Shown: positions 4,801 through 56,670, numbered from the whole stretch's first letter. The stretch: 63,479 nt of DNA, filler included, from Folioceros fuciformis (GCA_049999805.1; 20 parts of 20 records of this genome joined end to end with filler, not necessarily neighbours in it); one strand, 5' to 3'. Translations and numbers: made by a program. The notes: generated by a model not told the origin, from the letters alone.

Positions 4801-6611
4801 CGGTATAGGAACTATCCAAGATGAAAGAGTAGAACATAAAAATGATGAAACAAACAACTCTACAAAAAACTAACGGAGTGCTTAGATCTCTGATAAGATG
4901 CTTCACTTTGTAAAGGCTCCAACTCTAGGACTCAAGAAAAGCAAGGACATATAACTATAACTAACATGTATGACCCTATCACAGTGAAGTAGCAACATGG
5001 TGACCCACAAAATTTCACGGTCCTATGATCCAAAGAAGAAGCTATTGTGTGTTGCTGCATGAATACCAACCATGGCTATTGTGTGTTGCTGCATGAATAC
5101 CAACCATGACGCGACACAAGTTCTTACTGTGCCTCAATCCAAACTTAGAGACCCATGTGTATGACATACCATAGAGAACAAAGGAGAGGTGTCAAAATTC
5201 TTTCTTAACACACCACTCATGGCGACTGTGGCGCATAAGATGAATAGATTGTTGTTCAAAGGAAAATCCTACAATAGACATCCTCCATTGTCCAAGAAAA
5301 AAAAACGCTCTCAAACCTTGACGCCTCCCTTTCACCCGACTGTTCCTTTCACATCATTCGTGATTCCACTTTTTCACGGGCCTCTCTCAGTTCAGGGGTG
5401 ATCTCTGCAGGTGACATGAAATGCATGATACAACAAACCTAAACCCCCCCATCCAACCATCCCATGCACCCTTGCCTATCCCTTTCCGTTCTCGTGCTGT
5501 CACGTCTACGTCTTGTCCCATCTTGTGCCCCTCCTGTCTTCTCCCATACCTTCACAAATAACAATTAGCCGAAGGTTCAAAGCCTTTCTTTAGGGTTTGT
5601 TCTCCAGATATTTTACATTTTAGTAACATGTCCAACATACTCTTTTAGTCCCAACCTTGAGGCCTCATCATATTTGTTCTTAGGGTACACATACAAACAG
5701 GGAATAAATAACAATTCAAATTCATAAATAGAAGAATTTTATATTAAGTAAAATATGAAAATAATTTCATGAATTTTGTATTAACGAAAATATGGAAGAC
5801 TTTCACAATGCCCAAACCAACTTGCACTACTACCGAAGGTCACATAAGTATCTTTTTATATTGCTTCTTGTTAATATTAGGGTAGCCAGCATTATTTTTT
5901 ATTTAAATTATATTAGGCCAAACCCTAATGGCGCCTGATAGAATCACTAGATTCGTATCGGTGCCACTAATAGTCGCGTCCTAAAACCTAAGCGACGTCG
6001 TTCTCGGGACACCACCCCAACGGCCGTCCTCACGGCCTTTTAAGCGGCCCATGGCCTAATGCAATTCATTCCTTTGTCTAATCTCTCTCACGATCCTAAT
6101 TAACCTTTATGGTATAAGAGCTAGATGGACCCTGCAGCGCCTCCTAGTACCTGCGAAATTTGCAAGAGTATCTGCTACAGCAAGAACCTCCCTCATGAGC
6201 TTTTCAGGGCGGTAATTGCTGCACTGAAGAACTCTCTCAGCAGGTTTGGGAGCATGGCAGAAGTCTTTCTTGCATGCACAATTAACCATTACTATTCTTG
6301 AGTCCTGCGCGATGCCGAGACAAAGAGGAAGGCGCAACGCCCCATCTTGTGACCCCTTCACAGGCAGGCCTGGACAAAGTGTGGCTGATCAGCATCATAA
6401 CTTGCAGCATTTCTTCTCAACTTGCTGTCAACCTGTGGGCAAGCGGGCATGGTATCCCTACCAGGCACCCGCTCACATGTATCGTGGCCACATCAATCCC
6501 ACGGTCGTTGTAGGTTTCCCCAGAATCGCTCCCCTCTAAGCCTGGCCAGCTTCGTGTATCGCTCCCCTACACTAGTCAACTCTCCCAACCACGTACCTAC
6601 CAATCTGGCCA

Positions 6612-6788: not shown

Positions 6789-7091
6789 CCTACACTTGAT
6801 ACCTTTTCCTCACAAGGCTCCCTACAACACCTTCCTCTACCCACAATCTAGCTGCTCGTCTCCCTACACCCAGCAACCAACAAGTTTCCTCCGAGCCTAC
6901 TCCGCTCCCTCCAACTCTGTTTATCGTTTGCCTACGACATTCAACCTTTCCCAGCGCGTACCTTCAACACGTCCAGTCGGTAGGAAGGCACNNNNNNNNN
7001 NNNNNNNNNNNNNNNNNNNNNNNNNNNNNNNNNNNTTAATTAATTAANNNNNNNNNNNNNNNNNNNNNNNNNNNNNNNNNNNNNNNNNNNN

Positions 7092-7813
7092 TAGCACGAT
7101 TGACATCGAACAAGGTCTGCAAAAACATTTCTTGCTCTATCCTGCACATGTTTAAAAATTGGTACCTCAAATCCCGAAAGCCTGGTTTACCTAAGGATCT
7201 AAGACACTGCTTTGCACAACATATCCTGCGGTAATCTGTAGAAATACGGATCTCAGAGCACTTTGCCTCAAGTACAATCGAATTTTTTTTCTTCCGATTG
7301 CGTCGATGATCAATAAGAGCTTCAATCAAAGATTCGGAGGATGGTTTTCAGATTGTATGATCTTCGCACCATTGTGCCAATCGTCCTGCCAGCTTCTTCG
7401 GACAACACATCCGCTCCTTCACCTTCGGCAAGGAAGCGCTCACCGCTTGATGTTCCTGGTACCCAGCTTCCACTCGCATGTACTTCCACATCCACATTAA
7501 CAACGTTAGTGTGCAAGATTGTGCCCTCCGCATTCCGCTTGATAGGTGTTTTCAGGATCGCTTGCCTGAAAGGAGATTGTAAGTGCAATGGGCTTGTTGA
7601 AGTATGGATGTCGTCGAGAAGACTAAGGTGTACAGGCGAAGCTCGAAAGTCGATGTCGTTACCTTCTGAGTCATCGACTTCAAAGCATCATGATGCGAAC
7701 AGAAAACTCAAACATAGACTTCCAACTAGAACACACGAATGCCCTTCGCGAACTGAATTCCTCACCTACCTTGAGAGTTGAACTCCGCTTTTGTCATCGC
7801 CACCATCTCGCAT
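7092..7813 (-). pseudogene. Mutator-like (MuDR/FAR1) transposase N-terminal remnant
   Basis: Minus-strand fragments LKVGEEFSSRRAF, CGSTCEWKL and ISTDYRRICCAKQCL resemble the MuDR motifs LxVGxxFxS, CxWxL and ISYxxAxRAK; frameshifted. Confidence 0.5.
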
Positions 7814-8327
7814 GAGGAAGAAGCCTGCCAATCCATGCCAATGTCTCAAGGATTGCTTGCAAATGACCTTCCTTACAAGATGCAAGCTAACGTCACTTGG
7901 AGTTTGATTGAAGACAGGGTTACACTGGCATAATTAAGCCACCACTTGAATATGAACGTTTGATCACGATAACAAATAGCTGTTGTTGGTCTTAAACAAC
8001 GCCTACAATTGTTGTTGTGGCATAAATGCTGGGGACGTAGTTCGAACTCTTTTTCTATTTCAGGAAACAGAAATTAAACTTCACATTTGACTTCAAATCT
8101 CATCGTTCAATACTTAAGACATCATTCTCTCCTTCTGGATCAGACTAGTTGTTTTTGAGTTCCATCATTCACAAGCTCTCAAGCGCAATCGAAGATGGCA
8201 GCTAGCCGGGCGGAGCAACAAGCAACTGAATGCGGCAATTGACATGCAAGCATTGAAGGCACCACCAAGGTTGAAGAAACCATGACAGGGTGCGAAAGCT
8301 TCAGCTCGCACTTCGTCTGGCCCATTC

Positions 8328-9290
8328 GTGGAAAGAGATAGCCATCGACGACCAGCGATCACAATAGGGGATGTTACACCACAGCCACCAGCTATTACAA
8401 TGAGGAAAGACAATTCCGCTGGGAGCGTTCGTGCATCGAACAACAAAGCTAGCGAAGTCCATATTAACCATGTTCCTATGAATGTGACTAAGGGTGGCAG
8501 CATGGGTGGTAGCCAGAACCACAACATTCCAAATGTGTACAACTTTGCTGAGCGTTTAAAGCTGAAAAAGCTTGAAGGCACGCTTGCCAAAAGATTCAAC
8601 ATAGAGAAAGAGTAGTTTTTAGTAATAGAAGAGGAGCCATAAGACTGCAATTCGCCCTGGGTGCCGCTGGTGGCTCTATGGGTTAACGATTTCCAAGGCT
8701 TGCAGGGCAATGAGGCAGGGAGGCCTGGATGGATTCTGTGTGCATTTGTCAACGGCGTGGAAGAGGAAACCCATGTCAATTTTATCTGCACGCGGCACCC
8801 ACCAAGCCATATCATCGATGACTACGATAGCCACAGCCTCGTTGTAGTCAATGTCGCGAAAGCTGTGCCACTGCGTTGCGAACCGATGTGGCTTAAAACC
8901 GCTTCAAAAGATTGCTTGAATGTGGAAGATGTTAGTATTTATTTATTTTAATGTCGGTTTATGTTTATAAACCGAGCATTAGGTAACCCTAAATTTTCCA
9001 TTACGTGTTTCCTGCAGGGAGGCAAACAGTTCTGTCGGATTGTCTTGCGCTATGTTGCTGATTGCGTTCTGAAGAATCATGCGTTAGCATCAAGAATTGC
9101 AGGAGAGCGCCAAAGGGTTTCAATTCAAGCAGAGTTCGGCCCCATCTCATCAAGGCAAACGGAGAGGGTTGAGAGACAAGTGGAAATGCCGTGCATGCAG
9201 CTAGAGCTTTTAGAAGACGACGTCCCTGACCAAGAATAGCTGAGCGATGAGGAGGAGAAAGAGATGGGAGAGTATTCCTGTGAATGAAAA
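8328..9290 (+). pseudogene. Spliced ORF of unknown function, divergent from the Mutator-like remnant; intron 8931-9017
   Basis: ORFs 8328, 8661 and 8961 share one frame; the phase-0 GTTAGT...CTGCAG intron removes one stop; others remain (8613, ~8640, 9237). Confidence 0.45.
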
Positions 9291-9528
9291 AACTTTCAGA
9301 ACCCCCATTTTGAGCGACGGAATGAGCGGGTTGTGATTTTTTTTGTGAAGGGACAGGCGAATCAGTTTAGTAGGTAAATAAGACCAGGGTGTTTATGCCC
9401 AAAGTCCCTCTTGGGCTTCGGGGTTTGGNNNNNNNNNNNNNNNNNNNNNNNNNNNNNNNNNNNNNNNNNNNNTTAATTAATTAANNNNNNNNNNNNNNNN
9501 NNNNNNNNNNNNNNNNNNNNNNNNNNNN

Positions 9529-9712
9529 CCAATGGTCTTGCCACAAAGTGGTCATGATTCTTAATTTAGTGATGCCAATGGTCTTGCCACAAAGTGGTCA
9601 TGATTCTTAATTTAGTGATGCCAATGGTCTTGCCACAAAGTGGTCATGATTCTTAATTTAGTGATGCCAATGGTCTTGCCACAAAGTGGTCATGATTCTT
9701 AATTTAGTGATG
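9529..9712 (+). repeat. 46-bp perfect tandem repeat, 4 copies (cut off by contig edge)
   Basis: Unit CCAATGGTCTTGCCACAAAGTGGTCATGATTCTTAATTTAGTGATG; no spacers between copies. Confidence 0.97.
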
Positions 9713-10320
9713 CGCACAAGGCTAGGGGATCCACTAGGGGGTGCTCTCTTTGCCAGGGCACACGTTTGAGAGTAGTCTTTTAATGCCTCAGCACCTCGGG
9801 AAAAGCCTTTCTCCTTCTATGGCCAAAGACACTCATATCCTTGGCACGAAAGCAACCTTTGATCTCTTCTCCTTAGAGCTTGCCGATGTGAGACTAAGGG
9901 TCAAGTTGCCTGAGTGTAGAGTCTAGTCCCCCTCAAGCAATATGCCCTCTTCAATATTCAAGGGCACATGGGGGAAAGGGGCATGGCTTCCTCAAAGGAT
10001 TTGCAGGCTTGGGGGTTCCAGTTGGACCTCGTGCTTTTGTGAAAGATTTGGTGGATGTGGCATTGGAAGAAGACTTGGCTCACATTAGGCTCAAGTTGCA
10101 TTTGGTGTCCTTTCTTTCTGCTTTGCACGGTGGCCAAGTTACCTCACTAGGATTGTTGCTCCTTCTCCGACTTCCTTAACAAGTCTGAACAATTTTGACA
10201 ATTGAGTCATGTAGGCACTTGGGAACATCATACATCCCTACACCTTTGAATGTGCCATTGTTGTTTTTCTATTAGGGTTGGGTAAAGAGTGTGGTGTACT
10301 CTACTATTGGGCATGTGCCA
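9713..10320 (+). pseudogene. Degraded CRE-like non-LTR reverse transcriptase fragment
   Basis: RTRLGDPLGGALFARAH (QGDPL motif), AKDTHILG (decayed ADD motif), LRVKLPECRV (GLxVxxxKC motif). Confidence 0.65.
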
Positions 10321-10949
10321 TGGTTAAGTGCTTACTGTGTGGTGCGCTGTTGTGGCTTTCTTATGTTGAAATTGAGGTATTGAAGGTGCACATGCATATA
10401 AGATATTAAAGTTTATGTGGTCTGCACGGAGTGATGGTTGTTGGGTTGCTCTAAAACTAGAGTTGATAATACATTGAGAATAGGCTAAGATAGTTGTAGT
10501 GGACTCACTAAGACTTTGATGAGATGAGGTTTGTTGGTTGTGTGTAAAGAATTTTGGCAAGGATGATAAGATTTGATTTTGGGTTATTTTTGTGCAGCGG
10601 CTAGGGTGCGTGGTGTTGAGAAGGTCACATTTATTTCATAATGTGAAGTTTTTTGAGGTTATGCCTCCTATTGTCATTAAGCTTAATACAATTATTTATG
10701 TAGACAGTACGATATCAACATTGGACACTAAATCAACTATTATTAAGGATAAATATGAAGAAAATTTGCTACATTTTCATGGAGACTAGAGTGTATAATA
10801 AAATATATGTAGAACTAGGGCATCTATAATTTAAAATCTATAATTTATTAAAAAAAGATTGGATTTCCCATCTACCTGAAAAATGAGGAGGAACAACCCA
10901 ATGAGGGCCAAAAGCCAAAAGGAGAACTAGTCGTCTGAGATATCAATCC

Positions 10950-11930
10950 CGCAATTGCCTACTGCTCTTATGATGTGAAATGAAAAGGACCTACTACCAT
11001 CAATATTAATAAAGCTGTTATACTTGCTGTTGTTGTTTTGAAGATTGCATCAACCAACACCCTTTGCATAGCAATGGATATGCCTTGCTAAAAGAAGACT
11101 ACTACCGCGGGAAGGGAACAGCCTCATTCTTGTAACTATAATACACGTTTGCACACTCCTTTATAAACCTTGTAAAGTGAAGGCTCATGGCCTTATGGAC
11201 CTCTAGAGTAAGGGGGATGAAAACATGTCATCTTGTAGGGGAAAGTACTTATGGACCTAAGCTATCACAACAACACTATGCTGCTCAACCTAGAAATTGA
11301 TGATGTGCTTGCTGATGGAGTCCCCAGTGAGATCCATAACCACCATTAGCAACACAACATGTGTTCCCCTTAATAAATAAAAAGATTTCTACATTGAATG
11401 ACACTTGCCAACACCTCGTTGTGCAATGTATAATGACACTCTTTATATGGAAGAAACCCACTCCTTGGCCATTGAAAACATGACATCCCGAATAACATTA
11501 TGTATGCCAATCCACTACCCCCTATGGAACAACTTACAAGATGGTACTCAAAGTTGTCAATGGCAGCCCCGTAGCTGCAAGTAGAGAAGGACAAGGCCAA
11601 AGGCCATCGTGGACCAAGCCCAAGCAGAATTGAAAGTCATAAAAGGCGCGATGCAAAACGTTTGAATGCTTATGGGGCATGGCCTCCTAAGCCTCCAAAG
11701 GTTACGAGTCCCTTGCTTGTCCTAGAGGCACATGTGAAGGCAAGGCCCCCTCCTCAACAACCAAGAATCCTAAACCCTAGAATTGGGGTAGCGAGGGGCA
11801 AGCTGCCAAAGGAGGCTGTTAGAGCCAAGGCCTTCATGGTCAAGAGACCAGTGCCTCCAAAGACATTTGAAATATCAAGGAAACCTACTTATGAGCTTGA
11901 TTCTCCTCTAGGCATGTTAGAACATCTATA
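10950..11930 (-). pseudogene. Degraded C-terminus of a CRE-like non-LTR element (zinc finger plus restriction-like endonuclease)
   Basis: TCSYGAAIDNFEYHLVSCSIGG (CxCG...HLxxC); DNA at ~11450-11515 is similar to ~48650-48712. Confidence 0.55.
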
Positions 11931-13679
11931 AATAAAGGCATTTATAGTGACTCTTTTATGTGCAAGTTGTTAAGTCATTTTAGATATTATACTTCATAAT
12001 ATTTATAGATAGTTTTTTTAATATCTTTTGAACCTACCATTGGATGCAGCGCATAAGTCTTCTATGTTGGTGAACTTTTTTCCTTTTTCTTTAACATCAG
12101 CATTGGCATTTGTAGCTATCTATATTCAAACAAAATGTCATGTAAGTTTTCAAAACTATTGAATTCAATAATAAAAAATAGGAAAAAAGTCCTCATATAC
12201 TATGCATCTTATGGAGTTATATAAAGAATAGGAATATAATATAAGAAAAAACCTTACGTATTAATAAATAGACCCTAGGGTTTTGAGTTTTTTTAATATT
12301 GATCTAAGCTTTGACAAGCATTATGGCTTCCTCTTTATTCCAATTATAGTTTCTCGGGTTTTAATTCAAGGTTGCCCCCCTCCAAACCCTTCATCTTTTG
12401 GGTTGAAGAGGATGCCCCCTTGCAAATCTCTCTTAGGGGCTTGAGGGGCTGTATCCAAGGGGCACTTTTGGCCCTCTCCCATCTCCTTTGAACAAAATGT
12501 TGTCTTCCATTTATCAAACATAGACTACAATCTAATTGGAATGATTATCTTGCTCTTCTAATTGAAGTCTTCGAACCATTTTTTTTTTCTTCTAATTGAA
12601 GTCTATATATTAGAGTTTAGGGAATTCAACTCTAGTTCATTTTCTTTCCCTATTCTGAGCACCAAAGTAGCGTCAAGTCATTGTCAACTCATAATGCATT
12701 CACTAGTCAAGTCATTGTCAACTCATAATGCATTCACTAGTCAATGTCTGTCAAAGAAGGGGGTCAATGTTGACATCGAGTCTAGCTTGTGATTACACTT
12801 TGTGAAGTATTGTACATAGAATGAAACATAGTAAATAACACTTGTCCTTTTTCTACTCCTAACCACTCGTTCTTTTGCTGCCCCTAGCAACATCATACTT
12901 TTCTAAGGGGAGATGTACTTGGTGGGGGTTTTGTGCAATTTATTTACTAAAAATGGTATGTGATCAGTCATAGGCAAACCTCTTTTTTGGCAACTACTAA
13001 ATTCTTTCATAAATTTATGTTGCATGAATTAGTCTACTATTTTCACTATTGGAAGTAGGGTGTCGATGTTACAAGCTTTTATAATAATTTAGGGCTAACT
13101 TATAGTGTTGTAAGGAAAATTTGTCATGAGTTGCAATTTAGGTCTAAAGCCTAGAGAATAGTGCACAATTATGTTTTTATTTTATCACTCTCACTCACTA
13201 TGAACTAGGATGAGGTGATAAAGTCTTTCTCTAGCTTCCAAATGATATATGGTTATCCTAAAATGATAACATGGTTCTTAATTTACAAGGCATTTAGGTA
13301 TAATAAAATTTAATAATAAAATTTAATCTAACTAATTATTTTTCAGAATAGAAAACCAAAAAAATAATAACTTAAACAAGTGGGGGTAATACTATTGCCT
13401 CCATTCATCTCCTTCACTTGCTTTGAGTTTGAGCCACCGACCACTTAAGTTGGTGGGAGCTCATGCANNNNNNNNNNNNNNNNNNNNNNNNNNNNNNNNN
13501 NNNNNNNNNNNTTAATTAATTAANNNNNNNNNNNNNNNNNNNNNNNNNNNNNNNNNNNNNNNNNNNNACCATGTAGTGTAGCCAGGGAATGGGAGATGAA
13601 CAACATCTGCAGCAAAAGTGTGGGAGAAATGGGGGACATGAGGAGGACCTGTGCGAGACATGAGTTGAAAGGCCAAGCA

Positions 13680-14620
13680 GTTGCTGACCAGCCACGCCAC
13701 TGCATGAAGATCCATAGCACGGCCCAAGGCTGAGCACCGCTGCTGAACTGTGACTTGTTGTGCTGCTGTAGAATGAGTGTAAAAACCCATCACTCGCTCC
13801 CATTCCTCCACATTGGGTTCCTCCCACTGCTGTGTGTCAGTGTTCAACAGCATGCCAGCTCCCTGCCCTCTATATGCATGAGAGCTGGGATAGCTCACCA
13901 ATGTAGGAAGGGTACTGCGTGGTTGTCCTGGGACGTTGGTGCTGTACCAGGGCTTCCTCTCAGCAGCACGAACAGGTCGGGGCTGGTGATTGCTGTCTAG
14001 GACTGTGACCAAGCTCAAGGATGGGTCCCGAGTGGTACCAGCCAACACCAATTCTAGCAAGGGTTGGGGTGCAAGGTTGGTCCAAAAATTACGCAAATGA
14101 TGTGTGTAACTGCCCACCTGTACAACATCAAGTAACAAAGGAACTCCCACATGCTGCTGGATCACAGCCATGTCCTATCGAACCTGTAGTCGAGAATCCA
14201 GCTGGGTTGGAGTGTTCTCCAAAACGTAAGCATAAGTAGGGTTGCAGGCCTGAATCCACACCAAGATGCGTTGTAGATCCCAAAAAAGAGAAGAGCGCGT
14301 ATCTTGCAAACCTGCTCCAATGCTAGCTGAGGAAAACCCTTGGCATTCCCAACTAGCCACAACAATGTCTATGGGTGGTAGGCGCTGAATGTGTCCAACC
14401 TGGATGTACTGGACATCCTTGTGGAAGGGCTGTAAACATGGCAGCCATGGCAGGTGTGCTGGAAATCGGGATTGAAGTCCCTGAATTCGAAAAGCAGCTA
14501 GCGTCCTGGCTATGGGACACTTGTCACAATAAATGTATTGGGCCACAACCAGCCCATTCTGCAGCATGGCTTCCAATCCAGTGCATAGGCCCCCAAACAG
14601 TTCCAGAACTGTCAAGCCAA
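13680..14620 (-). pseudogene. C5-cytosine DNA methyltransferase domain (DNMT3-like), one internal TAG at 14175
   Basis: Motifs in canonical order: I VLELFGGL, IV IDIVVASWECQGFS, RSSLFW, VI YVLENT, VIII HHLRNFWTNL, IX EEWERVMGF, X QRCSALGRAM. ORFs 14175..14723 and 13512..14171 are in frame. Confidence 0.92.
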
Positions 14621-14879
14621 GTGCAGAGGGTGTCCATGCTATGATGGATTGATTGACATCGCCAAGTGTTGGTTGCTCATCTGGTGCGGGAGGTGGCTGC
14701 ATCCTTTGAAGGGCCAATTGCACATGTCAGGTGACCACATGCAAGACGTCTACAGATGGGTCACCCGTGTCATTTTCCAACAATACATCCCTCAAGCACG
14801 AGGTTGCTGCTAATGACTGTCTTGGCTGGTCCATCATTCCATCCTCATCATCAAGATTGGTATCCAGCCAAGTGTCCAC

Positions 14880-15362
14880 CTACCTGGTGTCAAGAATCAA
14901 GGTGCATATAAGCACTAGTGGAGCAATCAAGGTGGCAGTGTCCACCTCACTGGCTCCATGGAGATCAAGAGGCAAGTAGGCCACCTGCTGACCTCTGTTC
15001 CTCCAATCAGGCCTATAGTAGGCGAGCTCCGACCAGTCGTCCACACCTATGCCTGGAGGGAAGAGGAACGCTTGCCCAAGAAGCACATCATAATTTGTGG
15101 CCGTGGTCACTAGACAATGCAAGGCAAGCGTCATGGAGGAGGCTGTGCCCGGCTTGAACGTAATGGTAACTGGCTGTACAGTCTCTCCACATACAGGCTC
15201 AATTGACCCAGATGTTGTCCTGATGTTCCAAGGTGATGCTTTGAGAGCATCTCCACCCAGTCGCAGCCTTGCAGCAAGGGTCTTGCTGATGATGACGGGC
15301 TGCGCGCTAGTATCCAACAGGACCATCTTTGGTGCATATCCGTTGACAGTGACATGTCCCTC
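14880..15362 (-). pseudogene. Retroviral-type aspartic protease
   Basis: VTVNG...VLLDTSAQPVIIS (DTG decayed to DTS) and YDVLLGQAFL. Confidence 0.85.
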
Positions 15363-15808
15363 TCAGTTATCCACCATGGTATTGCCAACACGCACCTTCA
15401 TGCGGTTGGTGGGCTGCACACGAGGGCAACCTGGCATGGACGTGGCACGTTGAGAGGTGTATACCCCTAGCATAGATCCCACATCCCACTGTGGAGCCAT
15501 GTCCACTGCTGAAAATGACATGTCTGTGGCTGAGGTTGTTGGCAAACCTGCAGCTCATTCAGTATCAGTTGTTCCGGCAGTCATTGTGACAAATGTTGTT
15601 GATTCTCCACTCCTCAAGGCCTGGCTCAACTGCCTAGGACTAATGCCCATGTCTTGAACTGAAAACAACGGTGCATTTGCCAAGCGTTGGGCCAATCGCT
15701 TAGTGCTCATCACCTGTGGCAAGAGATGACATCGACCCCCACCCTGAATAGGTCGGACACCCACTGTATGCGCAGGTGACTTGTCCTGTAATCCTGGACC
15801 AGCCATAT

Positions 15809-16855
15809 TTAGTGTCCATCGTCCAAGTGATCCTGTCCCCGCACCGGGATGGATGCTCTAGGAGGAAGGGGAGTGAAAGACTGAGGCATGGCAGCCCTTG
15901 CCCCACGCTGTTGTGTGACTGGTCTAGTAGATCCAGCTGCTGCAGCCATGGTCAACCATCGAAGATCTTGTCCTACCCATGTAGAAGGCAAGGGGGAACT
16001 TGGCTGTGACGCTGATGCTACCACATCTACTGTACAGGCCTCATGTGGTAGCCCATAGTCCTCATCATCCTCTATTGGTGATGCCACCAATGTGGCTGTC
16101 CCATTTGGCTTGGAAGTAGCTACGCTGCTAGAGATGCTAGCTGAAAGTGCCCCCACCTGTGTGGCAAGAGCAACCACGGTTGCTTCCAGTGAAGTGAGCT
16201 TGTCTACATTAGTAGCCACCTTGGCCTTGGCCTTCTCTTGTTGCTGTTTGTTGCGTGAGACTCCTGTATTGCCTGTAGCCGAGAGGCTTGAATCAGTGGA
16301 AGTGGGAACTGTCCCTGCAACATTTGTGGTGCCCCCTCGCTGTTGCCTTCGCTCTGGATGCTTGTGGAAGCATACAGTCACAAGATGTCCAAGCTTGTGG
16401 CAATGAGAACAAAGCAATCCTTCAAGAGGGCACTTGCAGGCCGGAGCCATGTGCTCCGGACTGCCACAGCGATTGCACAAAGCCTCCAAGGTTGCTGCAG
16501 CTCCTGCTTTGGCCGGCTTGGCTTGAGTAGACTTTGATGCCCCAGCACCTACGGTCCTAGCAGCTATGCTCTTACTAGAGAACATGCTTTGATAATGCGT
16601 GAAGGCCTTAGAATGCCTTGAGGCATATGCTGAGAATGCAATCTCCTTCTTTTCAGCCTCCTCATGCACCTGCTCCAAAGTATAACTATCTCCATACTTA
16701 TCCACAAGGGATGTGACGAGCTGAAAGTGGAAAAGTGGATCACCTTCCAACGCTGTGAGGAATTTCTGTGTTGCCTCCTGGTCTGTTAGCATTCCTGTAC
16801 CCTCTCGCAATTTCTGTAGTCGACGAAAGGTCATCTGAACAGTTTCACCTTTCAC
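15809..16855 (-). CDS. Gag-like protein with tandem CCHC zinc knuckles
   Basis: KGETVQMTFRRL (gag major-homology-like), CNRCGSPEHMAPAC, CSHCHKLGHLVTVCFHKHP. Confidence 0.85.
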   Translation of the reverse strand: MKGETVQMTFRRLQKLREGTGMLTDQEATQKFLTALEGDPLFHFQLVTSLVDKYGDSYTLEQVHEEAEKKEIAFSAYASRHSKAFTHYQSMFSSKSIAARTVGAGASKSTQAKPAKAGAAATLEALCNRCGSPEHMAPACKCPLEGLLCSHCHKLGHLVTVCFHKHPERRQQRGGTTNVAGTVPTSTDSSLSATGNTGVSRNKQQQEKAKAKVATNVDKLTSLEATVVALATQVGALSASISSSVATSKPNGTATLVASPIEDDEDYGLPHEACTVDVVASASQPSSPLPSTWVGQDLRWLTMAAAAGSTRPVTQQRGARAAMPQSFTPLPPRASIPVRGQDHLDDGH

Positions 16856-16870
16856 CTTTCACCTTTCACC
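16843..16870 (+). repeat. (TTTCACC)4 microsatellite at the 5' end of the gag ORF
   Basis: Four perfect 7-mers. Confidence 0.9.
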
Positions 16871-17159
16871 AAACCAGTTCACAACTGTGAAATGCAAAAG
16901 TCACAGCTGCAAAAAAGGACTTGTAGGGAGCTGGTCTAAAAGCTAAGCTACATGTAATGAAAGACCTAAAATATCACTGTCCACAAGAGCCCTAGCCCCT
17001 ATGCTGCAACAAGAGGAGTGTTGGCTGCAAATAGCCAACATGCCCCAACTGAAACCCTAGGTGACCAACTCCTCCAAGGCATTCAGTCCCTGGATTTCAC
17101 TTTAAATTGAACAAAAATTATACCAATGGCTTTGTCTCAGTGAGGCAAACAATCTAGTA

Positions 17160-17747
17160 TGTAACCTCTGAAACCGACACTACGAACTCTGGAAGGTTGG
17201 GAAAGCTTGCTGCAGTTGAACAGCTATTGTTGCTGCTAGCACGATTGGGGCGTGTGGGTGATGCTGCCTTGCTGTAGTTGCGTGGCCGCCTCCACCTAGC
17301 TCATTCGCTCCCACATCTTGCTTCCCTGTCCAGATTGAGATAGTTGTTGAAGTGAAGAGATTGTAGCAAAACCTTGCAGCAATCTGGGTTTGAAAGGAGT
17401 TGCGTGACACACGCAGCTTGGTGAGTCAGTAAGTTACGCCATGAACTACAACATTGGAATCAAAGGCACTGAAAACGTTCTTCATCCTAGCTCCCAATTC
17501 AAGGGGACACAAAAACATGGTTTGAGCTGCCTTCCCCCAGTTACAGCGCTGCGCGGCACAACTTCAACAACTATCGACTTCTGCCTTGGTTGCCCCTTTT
17601 GCCTAATGCCAGCCATCTTCATGATCCAACGTCCAGCTAAGTTGGCTTCACGCCCTTGCATTAGCACTGCTCCTTCCATGATGCCTTGCTAGCGTACCCT
17701 AAGTTCTGTTGTTTCCTCACGTTGCCACGTTGGGCAGTAGGGTTACA
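17160..17747 (-). mobile_element. Candidate 5' LTR (588 bp) of the DNMT-carrying element
   Basis: 7-bp terminal inverted repeat TGTAACC...GGTTACA upstream of gag; no second copy in the window to confirm it. Confidence 0.55.
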
Positions 17748-17879
17748 CCAACAACAAGTTGGGAAATACCCAACATGTGTTCAGACTCAACTTGCCTAGA
17801 AACATCTAGCTATTTCTAAGCTAGTTTGTCAAACATCTACCTTATCTAAGTTCATTTATCCTAGCATTTAAAACATATA

Positions 17880-20170
17880 TTTGCTATCCTATTCTAAACA
17901 ACATTGGCTGAGGGTTTCTTACCTAATTGGCGGTCACGTTCATGACATACAATACCTCACACACCCCAACAGAATCCGTTTGCAGAAAGACTCAACAGGT
18001 CCATACTCGAGATCTCTAGATCCCTCCTTAAACTCTCAAGCCTATCTCGTGGCTACTAGGCGAAAGCAGTATCCACCACCATTTACCTGAAAAATTGTTT
18101 GCCCACTAAGGAACTGCCAAACACTACACCCTTTGAACGTTGGACAGGCCACAGGCCCCGGATCTCCCATCTTCGGATCTTCGGCAGCCCAGCCTTTGCT
18201 CACATAGCAGATGACACCAGAAGAAAATGGGACAATAAGGGCAAAAAGATTCTCTTCATAGGCTACTCAGATCAGGTCAAAGCCTACAAGCTCTTCGACC
18301 CATCAACCCGCGAGGTAACCCTCTCTTGTAGTGTTCACTTCAAAGAACCTCACATTCTTCATACTTTCCTTCACAACATCACAATCTCTTCCCCACTTCC
18401 CACTGTTGGTATGACTGATTATTCCCCTCTTGCTTGAGGGGGGCACATTTGACCACACCCCCTCATCCTTTCTCCACGATCAAGAGGCCCCTCCACCAGC
18501 TCCTGAACCCGAACAACATGAACACATCCAAACAAACCCTCAATTAGCATCGTAGCAGCAACCACAAGTAAGTCATCCAGAACCATAGGTAAACCCCCAC
18601 CAACCTGTAGCCCATCCAATTCCATTTTAGCCTCTCCTCCAAGACGTACCGACTTTCAGGTGATCATCAAGGGATAAAAAACCCTAAAACCCTAAACCCT
18701 AAACCACCAAGAGAAGAATGGAAGAATCCACCCTACACACATGGAGACACACTAACTGGCAGAACTCCTCCTTCCGCAAAACCCATACCTACAGACACGC
18801 AGACACAAGTGGATCAGTTGCATCGCATTATGCACAAGGCGTATATACTCAGCCATTAGATGCAAGGAGTTCCCCCAACAATCGAGGAATCCCTCCGCAT
18901 ACCTGAATGGAAGGTAGTAGTTCAATCAGAGTACGATTCACTCATCTCAAACAAAACTTGGATTCTTACTGATCTACGACATAGCAGAAAGCCCATTTCT
19001 TCCAAATGGACCTTCCGAAGGAAACGTCTCACGACACAAAGCAAGACTCGTAGCCTGTGGATTTACACAAATCCCAAGCTTCAACTGTGAAGAGAGCAAG
19101 CTCTTTAGCCCAGTGGTAAAGGCAACATCTATCAAGATTCTCTTGGCTTTTGCTGCACAGCACAAACTCGACATCCATTAGGTCGACATCAAAACATCTT
19201 TCCTGTATGGAACCCTACACGAGGAGATATACATGCTGCAGCCACCCGGATTCATCAAGGACCATCAAAAGGTCTGCAAGCTGCTAAAATCACTCTACGA
19301 TCTCAAACAATCAGCACAAGTCTGGAATGAGATAGTCGACTTGTACATCAAGAAATGTGGCTTCAAGCCCCTCTCAGCTGACTGAAGCGTATACATGCTA
19401 AGGACTGATAAAGATAAGTACGTCATCATGACCTTGTACGTGGATGATAATTTCATCTTCGGTAATGACCCACAGCTGATCCAACATGTTAAGAATTTGC
19501 TCACCAAAGAATATGAGGTGGCGAACATAGGCACCCTAAGGTATGCCCTAGGAGTCTAGTTCGAGAGGAGCACAGATGATCACTCCTTTTTCATACACCA
19601 GGAGCACTGCATCGAGCAACTCCTCACCAAGTTCAACCTGAAAGATGCGAAACCTATATCCACTCCCATGGCCACAGGACAGAAGGTATCAGCCTTAGAC
19701 AACCCAACAACACCCGAGCAGACAATAGAGATGGCAAATGTGCTCTATAGTGAGGCTATAGGAAGTTTACTCAACCTGTCCATCTGGACAAGACCAGACA
19801 TCGCCCAAGCTGTGAACGTGGCATTGAGGTACCTGTCGGACCCCGGCATGGCCCACTAGACCTGCATGAAGAGAATCCTATATTACCTAAAGGGAACAAA
19901 CTCACTCGGCATAGCATATAGAGGTGATTACAGTACCCAAAAGTGCCTACTGATCTCCTTCTCAAATGCCGACTGGGCATGCGACCCTGACACCCGCAAG
20001 TCTACCTCCGCATACTGCATGATGATAAACACAAGGGCTATCTCCTGGGCATGCAAGAAAATGTAGATAGTATGCCTGTCATCAACAGAGGTGGAGTACG
20101 CAGCCACATCCCTAACCACAAAAGAAATACTCTTGATCCGCCAGTTCCTGCACGATGTCGTGCTCCCGGT
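17880..20170 (+). mobile_element. Degenerate Ty1/copia pol (integrase-RT-RNase H)
   Basis: TPFERWTGHRPRISHLRIFGSPAFAHI, H*VDIKTSFL, LYVDD, FSNADWACDPDTRKSTS; integrase lies before RT. Confidence 0.93.
18678..18705 (-). repeat. Short interstitial telomere-like tract (TTTTAGGG/TTTAGGG)
   Basis: AAAACCCTAAAACCCTAAACCCTAAACC inside the copia integrase-RT spacer. Confidence 0.75.
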
Positions 20171-20315
20171 ATCAGCTGTTGTGAGCACTTCAATTCAGTC
20201 CATCAGCTGCAAGGCTAATGTCTTGTGCACTCAGAAAAAGAGAACAAAAAGATTGTCCATGCCTTCCCCCCCCAGCTGATGGACGGGCTGAAAGCATGAA
20301 AGAGCACGACAAGAG

Positions 20316-20768
20316 CTACACTCCTAGGCTGGTCACACCTGCTGTGTCCGGTTGGCACTTGGGACAATACCAAAGTTGCTCCGGTACATGGGTAAGTGGT
20401 GGCTGTAAGCAGAAAAGGTGGAAACCCCCATTGCAGCCATCACAAAGTAACATGAGGTCAGCATCATCTGTGCGTTGACAAACCTGACAAGGATAGTCCG
20501 TTGGTGGAATCCAATCTGCTGTGACAATAGAAGGATCAAGATTGGGCAAGTGGCAAGGTGCGCAATTCTTGGTGTGGTCAGTGGTGATCCGACCATCTGA
20601 GCCTTGCAATACCAGGATGCCATTAGGCTTGACCTCCTGAATCCGCAACACATGCCGACTGCTGGAAGTGTCCAGGGTATCTGAGGTCTGCCTCTGCAGG
20701 TAAACAAAGTCTCCTACCTGGAACTTCCTGAGCTTGGGCCTAAAACTGCCTCCCCTAGTGTGTGCATA
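20316..20768 (-). CDS. Ty3/gypsy-type integrase C-terminal region fused to a PHD finger (PHD 20355-20489); 5' partial
   Basis: Open from the contig edge: YAHTRGGSFRPKLRKFQVGDFVYL (FxxGDxV integrase C-terminal motif), then CQVC-x11-CDGC-x4-H-x2-C-x14-CPKC (C4HC3); purine tract GGGGGGGGAAGG follows the stop. Confidence 0.88.
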   Translation of the reverse strand, partial: YAHTRGGSFRPKLRKFQVGDFVYLQRQTSDTLDTSSSRHVLRIQEVKPNGILVLQGSDGRITTDHTKNCAPCHLPNLDPSIVTADWIPPTDYPCQVCQRTDDADLMLLCDGCNGGFHLFCLQPPLTHVPEQLWYCPKCQPDTAGVTSLGV

Positions 20769-20869
20769 ANNNNNNNNNNNNNNNNNNNNNNNNNNNNNNN
20801 NNNNNNNNNNNNNTTAATTAATTAANNNNNNNNNNNNNNNNNNNNNNNNNNNNNNNNNNNNNNNNNNNN

Positions 20870-22834: not shown

Positions 22835-24984
22835 ACCTGATTCATCAACCTTCCTTACAGAGACCAGGTTTTTGGTCAGTCTAGGTACGTAGAGTACATC
22901 TGGAATTGCGAGATGCTGTGAGGGCTTGAGGTCTAACTGTATAGTACCCTGCCCTTCAATTTTGTGCCAAGTATCATCCCCGAGGCACACAAACTCCACA
23001 GGGGAGCTCTCTCACATGTCAACAAAATAGGAAGGATCAGGTGTCATGTGTTGGGAAGCGCCACTGTCTATGTACAAGGTGTTCTCCTGTTGGTTAGCAT
23101 AGCAAGTAACCACATTGCATTGTGAGTCCTTAGATAAATGAGTAGGACTTGTGGTATCACCTGGGGCACAGCTTGTGAGAGGCTCTGCTGTACTTGTTCA
23201 TAGTTACAGCTAGGTGTCCAGAATGGCTGCTACGTTCGCCTGCAAGGCATTTCCTACATGTTTCCCAGGTGTGATTAGTCATTCCGCAATGACCACATGG
23301 CGGCCAACCTTTGGGGTTGTTGTACTGTTGAGGTCTCGCTCCTCCTCGACCACCACGGCCACCTCGACCTCCTCTCACGAAGGGACGGCCATGGCCCCTG
23401 CCTCTGAAAGGTTTGTTTGTGTACAAGGCCATATCTTAATTTACACTTACAGTTGCAATGCGTTTGTGAGATTCTTCCGTAAGCATTGCAGCGATCACTC
23501 TGTTGACTATAAGGTTTTGAACCTCTTGCAAGCTCTGGACAACTCCAGTCCATGTTTCAGGTAGTGTGGCTAGGAGTATGACTGCTACCAAATCTTCTTC
23601 TAGGGCAAAGCCAGCAGAAATGAGCTTGCCCCTCCAATTTCGAAACTCCAGGACGTGCTTGTCTACAGAGTCCGCTTCTATCATCTTTAGGCCAACAAAC
23701 TGTTTCAACACGTAGGTTTGTAACATAAAATCCCTTGAGTCGTAAACTTCCTTCGTTTGTTGCCAATACTCAGCAGCCGTGGTGGCGCCTTGAAAGACGC
23801 CAATGTGTGTGCTTTTCACACTCAGTTGCAGCAAGGTGCGTGCAGTCTGATCAGCCTCCTCCCAGATTGCAAGGTCGGCTAGGTTTGCTGGTTTTGGAAT
23901 TATGGCTGGAGGTGTTCCCAGACCTCCTACATATCCCCACAAGCGTCGGGATTTCAGGATTTCCACCATCTTGTCTCTCCAGATGTGCTAATTTGAGCCA
24001 TCGAATTTATCCTCCTTGGCGATTGTGAGAGCCAAGTTTTGAGAGGCTGATGGTGCATACCCATCCATCTCAAGCAAATATTTAAAGAATCAGGGGTTCG
24101 TAGGTCGCCTTGCAGGACAGGGTGCCAACTTCGTCATCAGCAATACACAAGGTAACCTTCAATCTTTCTTGCTTGTTTAGATCCTTCTCAGTGTGTAAAT
24201 ATTGTACAAACTGAGAGGTGTATTCATGGATTAACACCGATGATGGCTCTTGATGCACAGGTTCTCTGCCATAAAGCTCACAGAGATAGCAATGGAATGT
24301 TGCGTACAGCTTAGTCGTGGAAATGGGAAGTTGCATAGAAAAAGAGAAGATGCGTGGGAGTATCATCTTCCTTAGAGCAGGTCGTCAACTTTGAAGCTGC
24401 TCCAGTTGTACCCGTCTAGGGCTTCACATCCTTGGACCACGTTCTGTGCCATCAACCACAACATGATGCTGATTCTAATCCACACTTGCTCCCAACGGGT
24501 TGGGGCAAGTGAGCGATTGTAGTCGCCCTCCCTGGCGTCGATCCAGTCTTGTAAGTCCTGCCTCCTTCTCGCTCTCCTTGCTAGCCTCTCACGTTTCTTG
24601 AGAATCTTGATGCTGCTAATCCTCCTTGCTTGCATTCTTGCAGGTGTAACACTGAAGGCATCTGCACACAGAGTGGCTACAACATTTTAGAAGCACCCGT
24701 CCAGGATCCAAGAATACTAGGGCTAGTCTTGATGCGAAAAAGAAACATACAGTAGATCGACGTGCCAGAGTAGCACACGGCGTGGATCAAAACTAAAGGC
24801 TCTGATACCATGATAAGCAAAATGCTAGAATCAATAGAGAAAGCATCAATCGCGCGTAGTGCGCCGTGTGTCTTGCAATTGACACTTACACGTACATGTC
24901 CCGTGAAAGAGACATGACGGTTATAACGGTTAGGGTTAGCTAACCTAGACCTGAACCTAACTAAGGGTAATTAATACCCTATCA
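22835..24984 (-). mobile_element. Ty1/copia 5' half: LTR 24811-24984, PBS, long leader, gag (ATG 24068), zinc knuckle, protease
   Basis: TGATA...TATCA LTR ends; KFDGSN*HIWRDKMVEILKSRRLWGY; CGHCGMTNHTWETC; YIDSGASQHMTP; DVLYVPRLTKNLVSV. Confidence 0.92.
24798..24810 (-). promoter_or_regulatory. Primer binding site for initiator tRNA-Met
   Basis: TGGTATCAGAGCC directly after the LTR-terminal CA on the minus strand. Confidence 0.95.
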
Positions 24985-29825: not shown

Positions 29826-30691
29826 GCAGCAAGCAGACATGAGAGGAAAAGGAAGGCAGCATGGGAACTATGCCTCCTCTAGTAATGCTGGAAATGACCA
29901 GGATAGGTTGTTTGCCATGCAACATCTCTCTGAACAGGATGGGCAAAATGATGAGAAATGGTACATTGATTTAGGAGCATCAAACCACATGACTCCGCAT
30001 GGCGAGTGGTTTAACAAGATGGATGCAGGTCCCCATGGTCATGTGTGTACATGAGATGACACACAACATGACATAAAGCACAGAGGAATTGTTCCTCTTA
30101 GGATGCCGAATGGTCAGCAGAAGAGTCTGCAAGATGTGTTGCATGTTCCAACCATTACAAAGAAACTGTTGTCTGTTGAACAGATGGCTGAACAAAATCT
30201 GTAGCTTCGATTCAATAAAGATGGATGCTTTATTAAAGAATATGATAGAGGGCACAAACTGATTGCTAAAGGTAGTAGGAATGGACGGATGTTCACTCTG
30301 GATGCATCCATTCCAGAGCTAAATGCAGCAATGTTTACAAATGATGCAGGTGCCATACGCGATGTTGAAATATGGCATAAGAGGATTGGGCATGTGAACA
30401 TAGAGAAGCTGAAATCTATGCAACAAAAAAGTGTGGTGGAAGGATTGCCCAAGTTCAAGTATGCTGATCTTGGTCATATGTGTTTTGCATGTCAATTTGG
30501 AAAACAGTCAAGGTTTCCATTTGTGGGACACGTGCAGAACAGCTCGAGACCTTTGCAATTGATACACTCTGCTGTATGGGGTCCTTCACAGAATGCATCA
30601 TTTGGAGGAGCCCACTATTGTGTCTCCTTCATTGATGATTTCAGCAGGTACACGTGGCTGTACATACTGAAGCATAAGGATGAAGTGTTCG
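29826..30691 (+). mobile_element. Ty1/copia protease, GAG-pre-integrase and integrase N-terminal fragment
   Basis: WYIDLGASNHMT, WHKRIGHVN, CFACQFGKQ, LIHSAVWGPS, FIDDFSRYTWLY. Confidence 0.93.
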
Positions 30692-30726
30692 AGACCCGTA
30701 GGGGCATCTACTACCCGCCAGCGGTA

Positions 30727-31781
30727 GTAGTAGATGCCCCTACGGGTCTTCAGTTGTAGGCTGTAGCCCCGCGTCCCTCTTGTGCCCATACGTACATACA
30801 AAAAAAGCTTCAGAACTCGAGCTCCCTCCACATAGAGTCCTAGCAAATAAGAGGCCCCCTCCTCATACTGTAGCATAACCTGACCCTCTGTCATAAGGGA
30901 GGTGCTTACCCCTTCCTCCCTTGAGCTACCTCGGGTTGCCTGACCCCTGCTATCCTAGGGTACCAGAGAGTCCTCCATCCCTCCAGCTGCTATTGCTTCC
31001 CCCAGCTTAGTCTGCCTAGTGTGAGTCGCCCTCCTGGAACGCCTGGGCACAAGCGCCTCTGCCCTTACTGCTTCGGCTACGGGGTCATGGCTTCAGCTAC
31101 CGGCGTCGTTCCTCCCCCACCGGTAGCCCCTTCAACTACCTCGAGCGTCGCGAGACTACCGGTAGCCCCTCTGGCTACCGGTTCTGGAACTCGACTACCA
31201 GTAGCCCCGTCGGCTACCGGTTCTGGAGTTGGACCACCGGTAGCCCTTTCGGCTACCGGGGTCATCGTTCGACCACTGCGCCCAGCCTTGCCCTTCCCTT
31301 TTACTCTCTCTCTGGCCTCGTCCCGCTCCTGTTTGTACCTATCCGCCAGCATCTGGGCTTGTTCCATTGCAGCCATCTCCTGCTCCTGAGCCTTAGCCAT
31401 CTGTTGTTGTATTTCCAAATTAGTCTCATGGGCTACCCTCACTTGAGCTAGGAGCGACTTCTGTTGCTCCATCAGCGCCTTGGCCTAGCGCGCCTCTTCT
31501 TCTGCTTGTGCCTTGCCCTCGCTCAGGACCCGCTGCTCTTCTTTCAGGAGCCGTCGTGCCGTTTCAGACTCCGCCAGCTGTCTCCAGGCTTTGGACTCCT
31601 TTCCTCTTGCCTCTGCCTCCCTACTTCGGGCCTCGGCCTCCTTCTCCGCCTGCCTGCTCAGCCAGGTCAATGCCCTAGCCACCTGGTCCAACATGTCCGC
31701 TTGTGCCTACACCATGGCTGAGGTTAGTCTTGGCAGATCCACCTCCTGCGACCCCACAGGAGTCATTCCCCTCTTGGTTAT
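30727..31781 (-). mobile_element. Family C repeat, copy 2 (coiled-coil region and conserved C-terminal domain)
   Basis: LDQVARALTWLSRQAE and MTEGQVMLQYEEGASY...GTRGYSLQLKTR match copies 1 and 3. Confidence 0.85.
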
Positions 31782-55319: not shown

Positions 55320-56670
55320 ATGATGCTGGATTTCAATGTGTTTGGTTCTAGCATGAAAACGTGGACGCTCTACAAGTGCTAAGGCGTACTGGTTGTCACA
55401 GAACAAGGTAGTGGGTGATTTCTGCTCTGCATGTACTGATGCAAGAAAATTACGCTCTATCTCCTTGACAGCCTCTGTCAATCCCTTGTATTCTGCCTTA
55501 GTGCTACTAAGTGCAATGCTTGTCTGCTTTTTGCAGCTCTAATTCACTGCTGCTGAAGCAAGAAGAAAGGTGTATGTGGAGAGGCTTTTCTGGAATCACC
55601 ATCCGAAGCCTAGTCTACATCAACGAAGCCGTGCAAGGTAGGCACTTCACCACTTCTCTTGTAGTGTAGCCCTAGGTAGCAGGTTCCTTTCAAGTATCTA
55701 AACACACGCTTGACTGCTATCCAATGATTCCTTCTAGGACGCTCCAGAAACTGGGAAGCACTGTTAACTGGATACGTTATGTCAGGTCTGGTCTGGTCCA
55801 GTTACTCACAAAAACCAAGCTACCAATTGCGTGGCGATAAGGCACATCTTTCATATCAACAATGTCAGTAGCTGAAGTGGGAGAGTCCATAAGGGAAAGC
55901 TTTACTATAGAAGCTCTAGGTGTGCTGGCTGAATGTGCTTTATCCATATTGAATCTACGCAGTATCTCTGTGATGTACTTGAGTTGGTGCATGATGATGA
56001 GGCCTTGCTCACAAACACGCAGAACTTGAATGCCAAGGCAAAACTTCAATTCACCAACGTCTGTCATTTTGAATTCACTGCGAAGCATGGCCTTTACCCT
56101 TCCTAATAGCAGTTTGTCACTTGCTGCAAAGATGGCATCGTCTACATAGACTGCAAGGAGTACATAGGAGGCACCATCGTCATAAATGTAAACAGAAGGG
56201 TCGGCAGGGCTCTGTCGGAAACCAAGTGACTTCAGACAGGTATCTAGTCGTGCATTCCAGCGTTCTGCACTCTGCCGTAGACCATACAGCATTTTATAAG
56301 TTGACACACCCAGTCTAGATGTGCAGGGTCTTCATAGCCCTCGGGCTGCTCCGTGTACAACTCTTCCTCAAGAACACCATGGAGAAACGCGGTCTTAACG
56401 TCCATCTGCTGAAGCTCAAGATCGTGTTCAGTAGCGAGGGCAAGCATCAGGCGAATGGATTGTGAATGTACCACTGGCGAGAAAGTCTCCTGAAAATCGA
56501 GACCAGGTACTTGGGTGAAGCCCCGGGCACAAAGTCGTGCCTTGTATCTTGCAATTTCTCCCTCTGCATTCAACTTATGCTTAAATACCCATTTGCAGGT
56601 AATTGGACGTCGACCTTGGGGATGAGGTACGAGCTTCCAGGTGCCATTGTCCATGAGGCTTTTATATTCA
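55320..56670 (-). mobile_element. Ty1/copia RT-RNase H
   Basis: [46 protein letters not shown]. Confidence 0.95.

Follow-up and report, generated by a model that had tools for sequence, protein, structure and literature searches.

The stretch of Folioceros fuciformis DNA studied here (GCA_049999805.1), hereafter the window, spans 63,479 nucleotides and consists of 20 short contigs joined via identical N44-TTAATTAATTAA-N44 spacers. One of these contigs (13568-20769) carries at its right edge the C-terminal tail of a Ty3/gypsy integrase (IN) fused to a PHD finger and, farther along the same strand, a gag, an aspartic protease (PR) and a DNMT3-like cytosine methyltransferase (DNMT). The tail, whose owner we call copy A, and the gag-PR-DNMT element, which we call copy B, are two copies of one family, and both are partial, decayed members of the published green-lineage Gypsy-DNMT3 retrotransposons. 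The reading that we favour, with a probability of roughly 0.6, is that the tail closes the pol of a second copy of this family and that its PHD finger, which lacks the tryptophan of an aromatic cage, would read histone H3 unmethylated at lysine 4 (H3K4me0) and tether the integrase to chromatin.

An integrase tail that ends in a PHD finger

The tail is an open frame of 150 codons, by which residues are numbered below; it enters from the contig edge and ends with a TAG stop (Table 1). A search for longer proteins with this tail gave 77 relatives among 269 candidates, down to E 1.6e-70 (P-numbers designate homologous proteins and L-numbers metagenome loci). The best of them, the C-termini of P0001-P0005, are 72-73% identical to the window tail and include proteins from the liverwort Calypogeia fissa and the moss Sphagnum magellanicum. 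Since these closest relatives run upstream into reverse transcriptase (RT), RNase H (RH) and integrase, as in P0005 (929 residues, tail 72% identical), where RVT_1, RT_RNaseH, Integrase_H2C2, rve and PHD follow each other, the tail can be assigned to the C-terminus of a Ty3/gypsy integrase. The Ty3/gypsy pol order, i.e., PR-RT-RNaseH-integrase with H2C2 and DDE (rve) modules, is present in the relatives P0005 and L031; the window shows the last 150 residues of the copy A pol, and the colinearity of copy A itself is suggested by a public contig described below. A scan of the tail and of 41 relatives brought up no Chromo family member, a PHD finger occupying that place, and the element is therefore not a chromovirus. 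We also considered that the finger might be a host exon joined to the integrase by misassembly; this was rejected because integrase and PHD stand in one frame in dozens of independent proteins.

All eight zinc ligands of a C4HC3 finger are present (C94, C97, C109, C112, H117, C120, C135 and C138), and PF00628 is matched along its whole length of 47 positions, with E 2.9e-13 and a score of 50.1 bits (Pfam cut-off 24). The AlphaFold2 (AF2) model of the tail, built on a 33-row alignment, reaches a mean predicted local distance difference test score (pLDDT) of 81.8 and a predicted template modelling score of 0.51; it folds into a five-stranded barrel (strands at residues 21-24, 40-46, 51-55, 61-65 and 69-71, pLDDT 70-96 in these blocks) followed by a finger predicted to take the PHD fold, with a pLDDT of 91-95 across it. 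The barrel is SH3-like and is conserved across 90 aligned tails. Between barrel and finger lies a C-A-P-C-H motif whose column conservation in the 90 tails, 0.8-0.9, is level with that of the zinc ligands; in alignment A1 its P71 and H73 are invariant and its C72 is nearly so. Pfam and the structure matches gave no explanation for this motif, which may be an extra metal site.

Behind the stop codon follows a G-rich purine tract, GGGGGGGGAAGG. A run of seven to nine G, interrupted in L066, is found at an equal distance after the stop in 12 of the 12 related loci compared, and as the G run of L031 stands directly before a terminal repeat (repeat B, see below), we regard the tract as the polypurine tract of the element. 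The first-pass annotation of this DNA had proposed an open frame with FQVGDFVYL running in from the contig edge, a Gypsy-type integrase tail fused to an intact and complete C4HC3 finger, and a G-rich purine tract after it; each of these descriptions holds, the integrase being borne out by the relatives with RT-RH-IN upstream.

Selection on the finger could be followed among the loci. Over the PHD, the ratio of non-synonymous to synonymous substitutions (dN/dS) is 0.32-0.34 for the 15 pairs that can be formed among six stop-free locus tails (of 33), the dS between window and loci being saturated.

Two copies of one Gypsy-DNMT3 family

Read on the minus strand, the contig shows the tail of copy A upstream and the gag-PR-DNMT of copy B (16858-13568) some 3.4 kb downstream, so that the layout noted at first pass, same contig and strand as the DNMT element but upstream of its gag, is the one seen. 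Between tail and gag lies a Ty1/copia fragment on the opposite strand, and the tail must thus belong to a separate copy. This fragment, identified with its stops read as X (SH3_retrovirus E 3.9e-24, RVT_2 E 4.8e-53), is foreign to the Gypsy-DNMT family and keeps its two copies apart. Contigs of the public runs X1, X2 (5) and X3 (8) depart from the window sequence at 20156; accordingly, the 3' end of copy A is broken at this point, where it abuts the copia fragment. An apparent RNase H motif had suggested a copia/gypsy junction at about 20262; this was rejected, as the segment 20262-20156 is common to many copies, which places the junction at 20156, and the motif match is due to chance. By tblastn within the window, no second copy of the tail or of the DNMT was found.

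The contig of run X1 (9251 nt) shows 0 differences to window 20156-20769, whereas it departs from copy B at 9 of 53 letters in a piece of the PR (15181-15233) and at 29 of 153 letters in a piece of the gag (16571-16723). Tail, PR and gag follow in colinear order on this contig, PR and gag being 81-83% like those of copy B. The identical tail therefore comes with a PR and a gag of its own, 17-19% different, and the proposal that tail and DNMT element derive from different copies is upheld. The distance from tail to PR is 4305 nt in the X1 contig versus 4338 nt in the DNMT-bearing locus L031; as an element without the DNMT of about 1.1 kb would show a correspondingly shorter distance, this spacing makes it very probable that copy A itself holds a DNMT, which we infer since the X1 contig is possibly chimeric and is known by its matches and its spacing. 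On the same contig, 2272 letters lie between the gag piece and a 26-nt 5' match, versus 537 in copy B (window 16723-17261); the two copies would thus be some 1.7 kb different in this region, unless the short match is due to chance.

The homologues of the copy B DNMT sit within pol polyproteins, and PF00628 is detected in 10 of the 17 longer matches. Two architectures are found: type A, gag-PR-DNMT-RT-RH-IN(-PHD), whose order is that of copy B as far as copy B is present, and type B, RT-RH-DNMT-IN-PHD (P0021, P0032, P0059 and others). The DNMT is thus placed either between PR and RT (L031, P0022, P0073) or between RNase H and integrase, and the PHD stands at the integrase C-terminus with both placements. 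The two types separate cleanly in the DNMT tree, and the two placements may reflect one gain followed by a move, or two gains. Some type-B relatives (P0020, P0031, P0055 and P0092) carry further small modules: a G-patch between DNMT and integrase occurs in some of the type (PF01585, E 2e-5 to 1e-4), and in P0092 the PHD is followed by a PTM/DIR17-like Tudor match that is weak (E 8e-4) and falls short of the curated cut-off.

Over 357 residues, P0080 (DNMT-RT-RH) and P0005 (RT-RH-IN-PHD) are 89% identical. With P0080 as the query, 621 confirmed stretches came out of a metagenome scan, and 80 loci were kept from them. Full-length copies with DNMT and PHD in one pol, whose search had been proposed at first pass as a check, are found among these relatives, e.g., in L031, a complete element with, in order, gag (7083-8638), PR (9236-9634), DNMT (9902-10984) and RT-RH-IN-PHD (11393-14173). 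A DNMT match is present in 71 of the 80 loci; 41 of these have at least 4.6 kb downstream, and with this query, which itself includes the DNMT, the tail lies about 3.84 kb downstream of the DNMT in 39 of the 41. The two exceptions are L010, a copy truncated within the integrase, and L049, in which a tail piece is inverted.

Searches seeded with the tail lead to the same picture. Among the proteins so obtained, 27 span the RH-IN junction; in 18 of them the junction holds an insert longer than 400 residues, with a DNMT profile match in 18 of 18, and the other nine comprise P0022 and P0073, with a DNMT before the RT, P0045, without one, and six that are too short, so that the DNMT is present in 20 of 21 evaluable proteins. 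An exhaustive tail search over 1.84 billion representatives returned 8368 proteins at E <= 0.001, of which 117 reach E <= 1e-30; among the best 150, which were examined, 140 contain the full tail. In 21 of these the tail is preceded by at least 1000 residues, and 19 of the 21 encode a DNMT. Taken together, these tail-seeded counts place tail and DNMT nearly always in one pol. The misgiving that PHD-bearing elements might lack the methyltransferase thus holds for three relatives (P0045, P0175 and P0303) and fails for the other evaluable members of the two samples.

Our phylogenetic analyses link the two pieces of the window. In the tail tree (100 rows, 145 columns; 14 of the 21 loci with both domains used), the window tail is sister to a 32-row clade, with a Shimodaira-Hasegawa-like approximate likelihood-ratio test (SH-aLRT) support of 87; this clade includes all 14 type-A loci used and the fragments from Calypogeia and Sphagnum. 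In the DNMT tree (52 rows), the same 14 loci, joined by P0079 and P0080, form the sister group of the window DNMT (97), and the positions of window tail and window DNMT are congruent between both trees. The G8 tract behind the tail, which recurs in the related loci, and the X1 contig agree with this kinship.

With respect to the ends of the element, L031 (5558-14882) is bounded by split direct repeats, A ... B-A-B, in a DIRS-like manner and not by a plain pair of identical long terminal repeats (LTRs): repeat A occupies 5558-5849 and 14406-14697 (92% identical), and repeat B 14229-14413 and 14698-14882 (94%). This A-coding-B-A-B layout is visible in L031; no terminal repeats were found in the window contig 13568-20769.

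Copy B has decayed, with in-frame stops after the PR and within the DNMT (TAG at 14175-14177). The best solved relatives of its DNMT are DNMT3A, DNMT3C and DNMT3B (E 5e-7), and a search for closer DNMT proteins from the same organism gave a best match of 51% identity. Catalytic motif IV (window 14300-14330, minus strand) reads E-C-Q instead of the usual P-C, and E-C-Q is also the majority in the type-A (21) and type-B (30) relatives, with a conservation of about 0.9.

What the finger may read and what it may serve

Residues 114-117 of the tail read G-G-F-H, so that a glycine, and not a cage tryptophan, stands two positions before the zinc-binding histidine. An acidic residue (D91) precedes the first cysteine, and the M-L-L-C strand has an acidic cluster (D101-D102-A103-D104) ahead of it. 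In the alignments with KDM5D, Lid and WSTF, this cluster falls on acidic clusters of theirs, and it may correspond to the wall residue of BAZ2A; the majority of the family is acidic at these positions too. Across the relatives, the zinc ligands, M106-L108, D110 and W133 are fully or almost fully conserved, and the acidic cluster is nearly invariant together with the beta-strand residues M106-L107-L108. The features by which the finger had been likened at first pass to those of AIRE and BHC80 (acidic residue before the first cysteine, LLC, no tryptophan before the histidine) are all in the sequence, and both AIRE and BHC80/PHF21A are among its solved relatives.

Against the PDB, phmmer matched 89 distinct sequences at E <= 0.01, with Lid/KDM5 PHD1 at the top (5.2e-16); the other matches include CHD4, KDM5D PHD1, WSTF, UHRF1, KDM5A/KDM5B PHD1, BAZ2A/B and plant ORC1b, as well as KMT2C/D, KAT6A, ATXR5, PHF21A and AIRE. 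A Foldseek search with the AF2 finger superposed it on solved PHD fingers with a root-mean-square deviation (rmsd) of 0.9-1.6 A over 47-48 columns: 0.9 A (48 columns) for ATXR5 with H3, 1.1 A for KDM5D, 1.2 A for UHRF1, and 1.2-1.3 A for BAZ2A bound to an unmodified H3K4 peptide; UHRF1 in complex with H3 is likewise among the structural matches. In excerpts of PMC5415848, a subclass of acidic, tryptophan-less PHD fingers, among them BAZ2A/B, UHRF1, MOZ, DPF3 and KDM5 PHD1, is described as reading unmodified H3K4, with K4 methylation weakening the binding, and acidic-wall residue and cage tryptophan are given as nearly mutually exclusive. The window finger is 40-55% identical to the cage-less acidic fingers (KDM5 PHD1, BAZ2A/B, UHRF1, the KAT6 DPF, ATXR5, PHF21A/BHC80 and AIRE), with an rmsd of about 1 A. 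Like them it has no cage tryptophan and, as far as the alignments with KDM5D, Lid and WSTF show, acidic residues ahead of the first beta strand. The known fingers, however, belong to cellular chromatin regulators, whereas that of the window follows an SH3-like barrel and an additional C-x2-C-H motif on the integrase of a transposon. Owing to this resemblance in sequence and structure to readers of unmodified H3, a reader of the H3K4me0 type is the best-supported reading, and binding of H3K4me0 by the finger itself is, on these grounds, somewhat probable.

On the favoured reading, the frame forms the last 150 residues of a pol in an element with the architecture gag-PR-DNMT3-RT-RNaseH-integrase-PHD, and the finger would tether the complex of integrase and cDNA to nucleosomes that are free of H3K4 methylation. 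Insertions would thereby be led to silent chromatin, which is often methylated beforehand, in a way comparable to that of the integrase chromodomain in chromoviruses, and the DNMT3 domain of the same polyprotein would be a separate writer of methylation. The PHD is fixed to the integrase while the position of the DNMT varies, which speaks for integration targeting rather than for guidance of the methylase; the role that we rate highest for the finger is integration targeting, at about even chances.

Several observations weigh against this reading. The window holds only the tail of copy A, and tail and DNMT never occur in one frame of the window; the X1 contig, which bridges this gap, is a short-read contig and possibly a chimera of several repeat copies. 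The tail-tree support of 87 is below the starred level and comes from a short alignment (145 columns for 100 rows), and the count of 39 of 41 loci is biased towards DNMT-bearing copies because the P0080 query includes the DNMT. The same tail is found without a DNMT in P0045, which has 668 residues upstream of its RT, and in P0175 and P0303 from the exhaustive search. Most copies are dead, with in-frame stops in the tail matches of 27 of 33 loci, and no frame of at least 1000 residues was found on the element strand in the 80 loci. Fingers of the subclass also bind non-histone N-termini, as UHRF1 does with PAF15 and Stella peptides, and DNMT and IN-PHD may act as one protein or as two.

Among the alternatives, the one that survives best, which we nevertheless hold to be unlikely, is that the PHD serves the methyltransferase by replacing a missing ADD domain and steering de novo methylation to H3K4me0 chromatin; it would do so in an uncleaved polyprotein or in the DNMT-IN-PHD product of type B. 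The ADD domain of DNMT3 reads H3K4me0, and by Pfam neither ADD nor PWWP was found in the element-borne DNMT3-like domains. That DNMT and PHD go together in nearly all evaluable relatives (20 of 21 and 19 of 21) is in line with such a role, as is the type-B order, in which DNMT, integrase and PHD follow each other without RT or RH between. In type A, which is the type of the window, DNMT and PHD are, however, separated by RT, RH and integrase, some 900 residues in all, and the constant element is the position of the PHD relative to the integrase, not that of the DNMT; tails of the same kind moreover occur in the three DNMT-less elements. We are more doubtful still of a combined form, in which green-lineage Gypsy-DNMT3 elements would be a read-write pair of an integrase PHD that recognises H3K4me0 nucleosomes and a DNMT3 deprived of its ADD reader, the PHD guiding both integration and methylase and the element thus setting the methylation of its landing site; such a pair would act before cleavage, or as the type-B DNMT-IN-PHD product.

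It is also conceivable, and in our opinion improbable, that the tail comes from a PHD-bearing gypsy family without a DNMT and adjoins an unrelated DNMT element by chance. Pols with this tail and no DNMT do exist, as P0045, P0175 and P0303 attest, the window offers no single frame with both domains, and when the window contig was compared with the 80 loci by blastn, the matches were confined to the coding tail and the PR, so that no non-coding link between the two pieces was found. Against this stand the congruence of tail and DNMT trees, the X1 contig, which joins an identical tail to copy-B-like PR and gag (81-83%) with a DNMT-sized spacing, the position of the P0045 tail elsewhere in the tail tree, and the fact that all long-enough members of the sister clade of the window tail carry a DNMT.

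A finger that does not bind H3, and instead binds a host or element protein with an H3-like N-terminus or is a purely structural zinc module of the integrase C-terminal domain, is a poorer candidate again: the PAF15 and Stella peptides bound by close structural relatives and the conserved extra C-x2-C-H motif before the finger are compatible with it, but the nearest matches in sequence and structure are overwhelmingly readers of the H3 N-terminus, and the acidic cluster and M106-L107-L108 are nearly invariant. Many PHD fingers read H3K4me3, and Spp1, which we take to represent an H3K4me3 reader family, does appear far down the PDB list (E 1.7e-6); a finger of this kind, which would send insertions to active promoters, is nonetheless highly improbable here, given the glycine in place of the tryptophan two positions before the zinc-binding histidine, the near mutual exclusion of acidic wall and cage tryptophan (PMC5415848, excerpts), and top PDB and Foldseek matches that read unmodified H3.

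The contig, its neighbours and the known elements

The favoured reading, a Gypsy-DNMT3 pol tail with a putative H3K4me0-reading finger, concerns a single contig of the window. The succession of tail, copia fragment and gag on this contig may have arisen from nested insertions with deletion or from an assembly join; the tail has a higher read depth than the copia fragment, but as depth is not copy number, it was not used as evidence. Outside the contig, 28 long frames were found, of which those named by Pfam are all transposon pieces and 21 have no match. The features are collected in Table 1.

Table 1. Positions of the features of copy A, copy B and other mobile elements, counted from the first letter of the window
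Feature	Position	Strand	Basis or remark
Open 150-codon frame, Ty3/gypsy integrase C-terminal tail (copy A); N-terminal side cut by contig edge	20319..20768	-	
Integrase C-terminal SH3-like beta-barrel, residues 16-71, including FQVGDFVYL (residues 16-24)	20556..20723	-	AF2 model
C-A-P-C-H motif, residues 69-73, between barrel and PHD	20550..20564	-	conservation
C4HC3 PHD finger, residues 94-138, with D101-D102-A103-D104 and G-F-H	20355..20489	-	PF00628
TAG stop ending pol	20316..20318	-	
Polypurine tract GGGGGGGGAAGG (G8 then AAGG), about 43 nt after the stop	20262..20273	-	
Copy A 3' non-coding end, broken off at 20156	20156..20315	-	
Decayed Ty1/copia fragment, both ends truncated (integrase C-part, RT, part of RNase H)	17900..20155	+	boundaries approximate
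gag of copy B, two CCHC-like knuckles	15812..16858	-	26-36% identical to L031 gag region
Aspartic protease of copy B	14883..15362	-	PF13975 E 4e-8
DNMT3-like cytosine methyltransferase of copy B, running off the contig	13569..14726	-	PF00145 E 7.8e-8
Copia gag	23439-23987		Pfam
GAG-pre-integrase	30205-30756		Pfam
Copia RT	35100-36462 and 55780-56753		Pfam
PIF/Harbinger-type DDE transposase	61545-62426		Pfam

The Gypsy-DNMT3 family itself is already published. In KnitGypsy-Dnmt3 of Klebsormidium nitens, a DNMT3 lies within a gypsy pol and the repeats are arranged as A-coding-B-A-B (de Mendoza et al. 2018, PMC5890265, consulted in excerpts). The elements considered here resemble it by their intron-less DNMT3-like domain within a gypsy pol and by their green-lineage hosts, and the repeats of L031 follow the arrangement given in the legend of its Fig. 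4c in spite of a DDE integrase; they differ by their two DNMT placements and by nearest named relatives that are bryophytes (Calypogeia, Sphagnum). The word PHD is absent from the text and one supplement of PMC5890265, whose figures or other supplements may show the finger, and our searches found no paper in which an integrase PHD finger is stated for Gypsy-DNMT3 elements.

PHD fingers are encoded by many retrotransposons according to excerpts of PMC6673714 and are a common accessory domain of Chlamydomonas transposons according to excerpts of PMC9940879 and PMC8557442, in which Gypsy-7a_cRei and REM1 (the latter by way of citations) are likewise green-lineage gypsy elements with a PHD in pol. 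Unlike here, these excerpts mention no DNMT for them, and the legend for Gypsy-7a_cRei puts the PHD before the integrase. With chromoviruses, the elements share a histone-tail reader at the C-terminus of a gypsy integrase and, likely, a choice of chromatin (excerpts of PMC6673714 and 10.64898/2026.05.21.726589); the reader is a PHD and not a chromodomain, however, and the mark predicted for it is unmodified H3K4, not H3K9 methylation. A parallel is offered by the EpiLTRs (10.64898/2026.05.21.726589), single LTR retrotransposons of Cymbomonas and Euglena that also combine a DNA methyltransferase with a histone reader domain; theirs are an adenine methylase, a DNMT4-related cytosine methylase and a chromodomain, whereas a DNMT3-like domain and a PHD, and no adenine methylase, are found here. 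The portions of this preprint at hand refer to streptophyte Gypsy-DNMT3, present retrotransposons with methylase and chromodomain as new, and contain no mention of a PHD.

What is added here is the near-constant pairing of DNMT3 with a cage-less integrase PHD across the green lineage, in two DNMT placements; this pairing holds in all long evaluable relatives except three. Transposons endowed with chromatin machinery show how mobile DNA may choose or shape its epigenetic surroundings. Should the finger indeed read H3K4me0, we would have here a PHD-based counterpart of chromoviruses and an instance from nature in which a histone reader travels together with a writer of DNA methylation.

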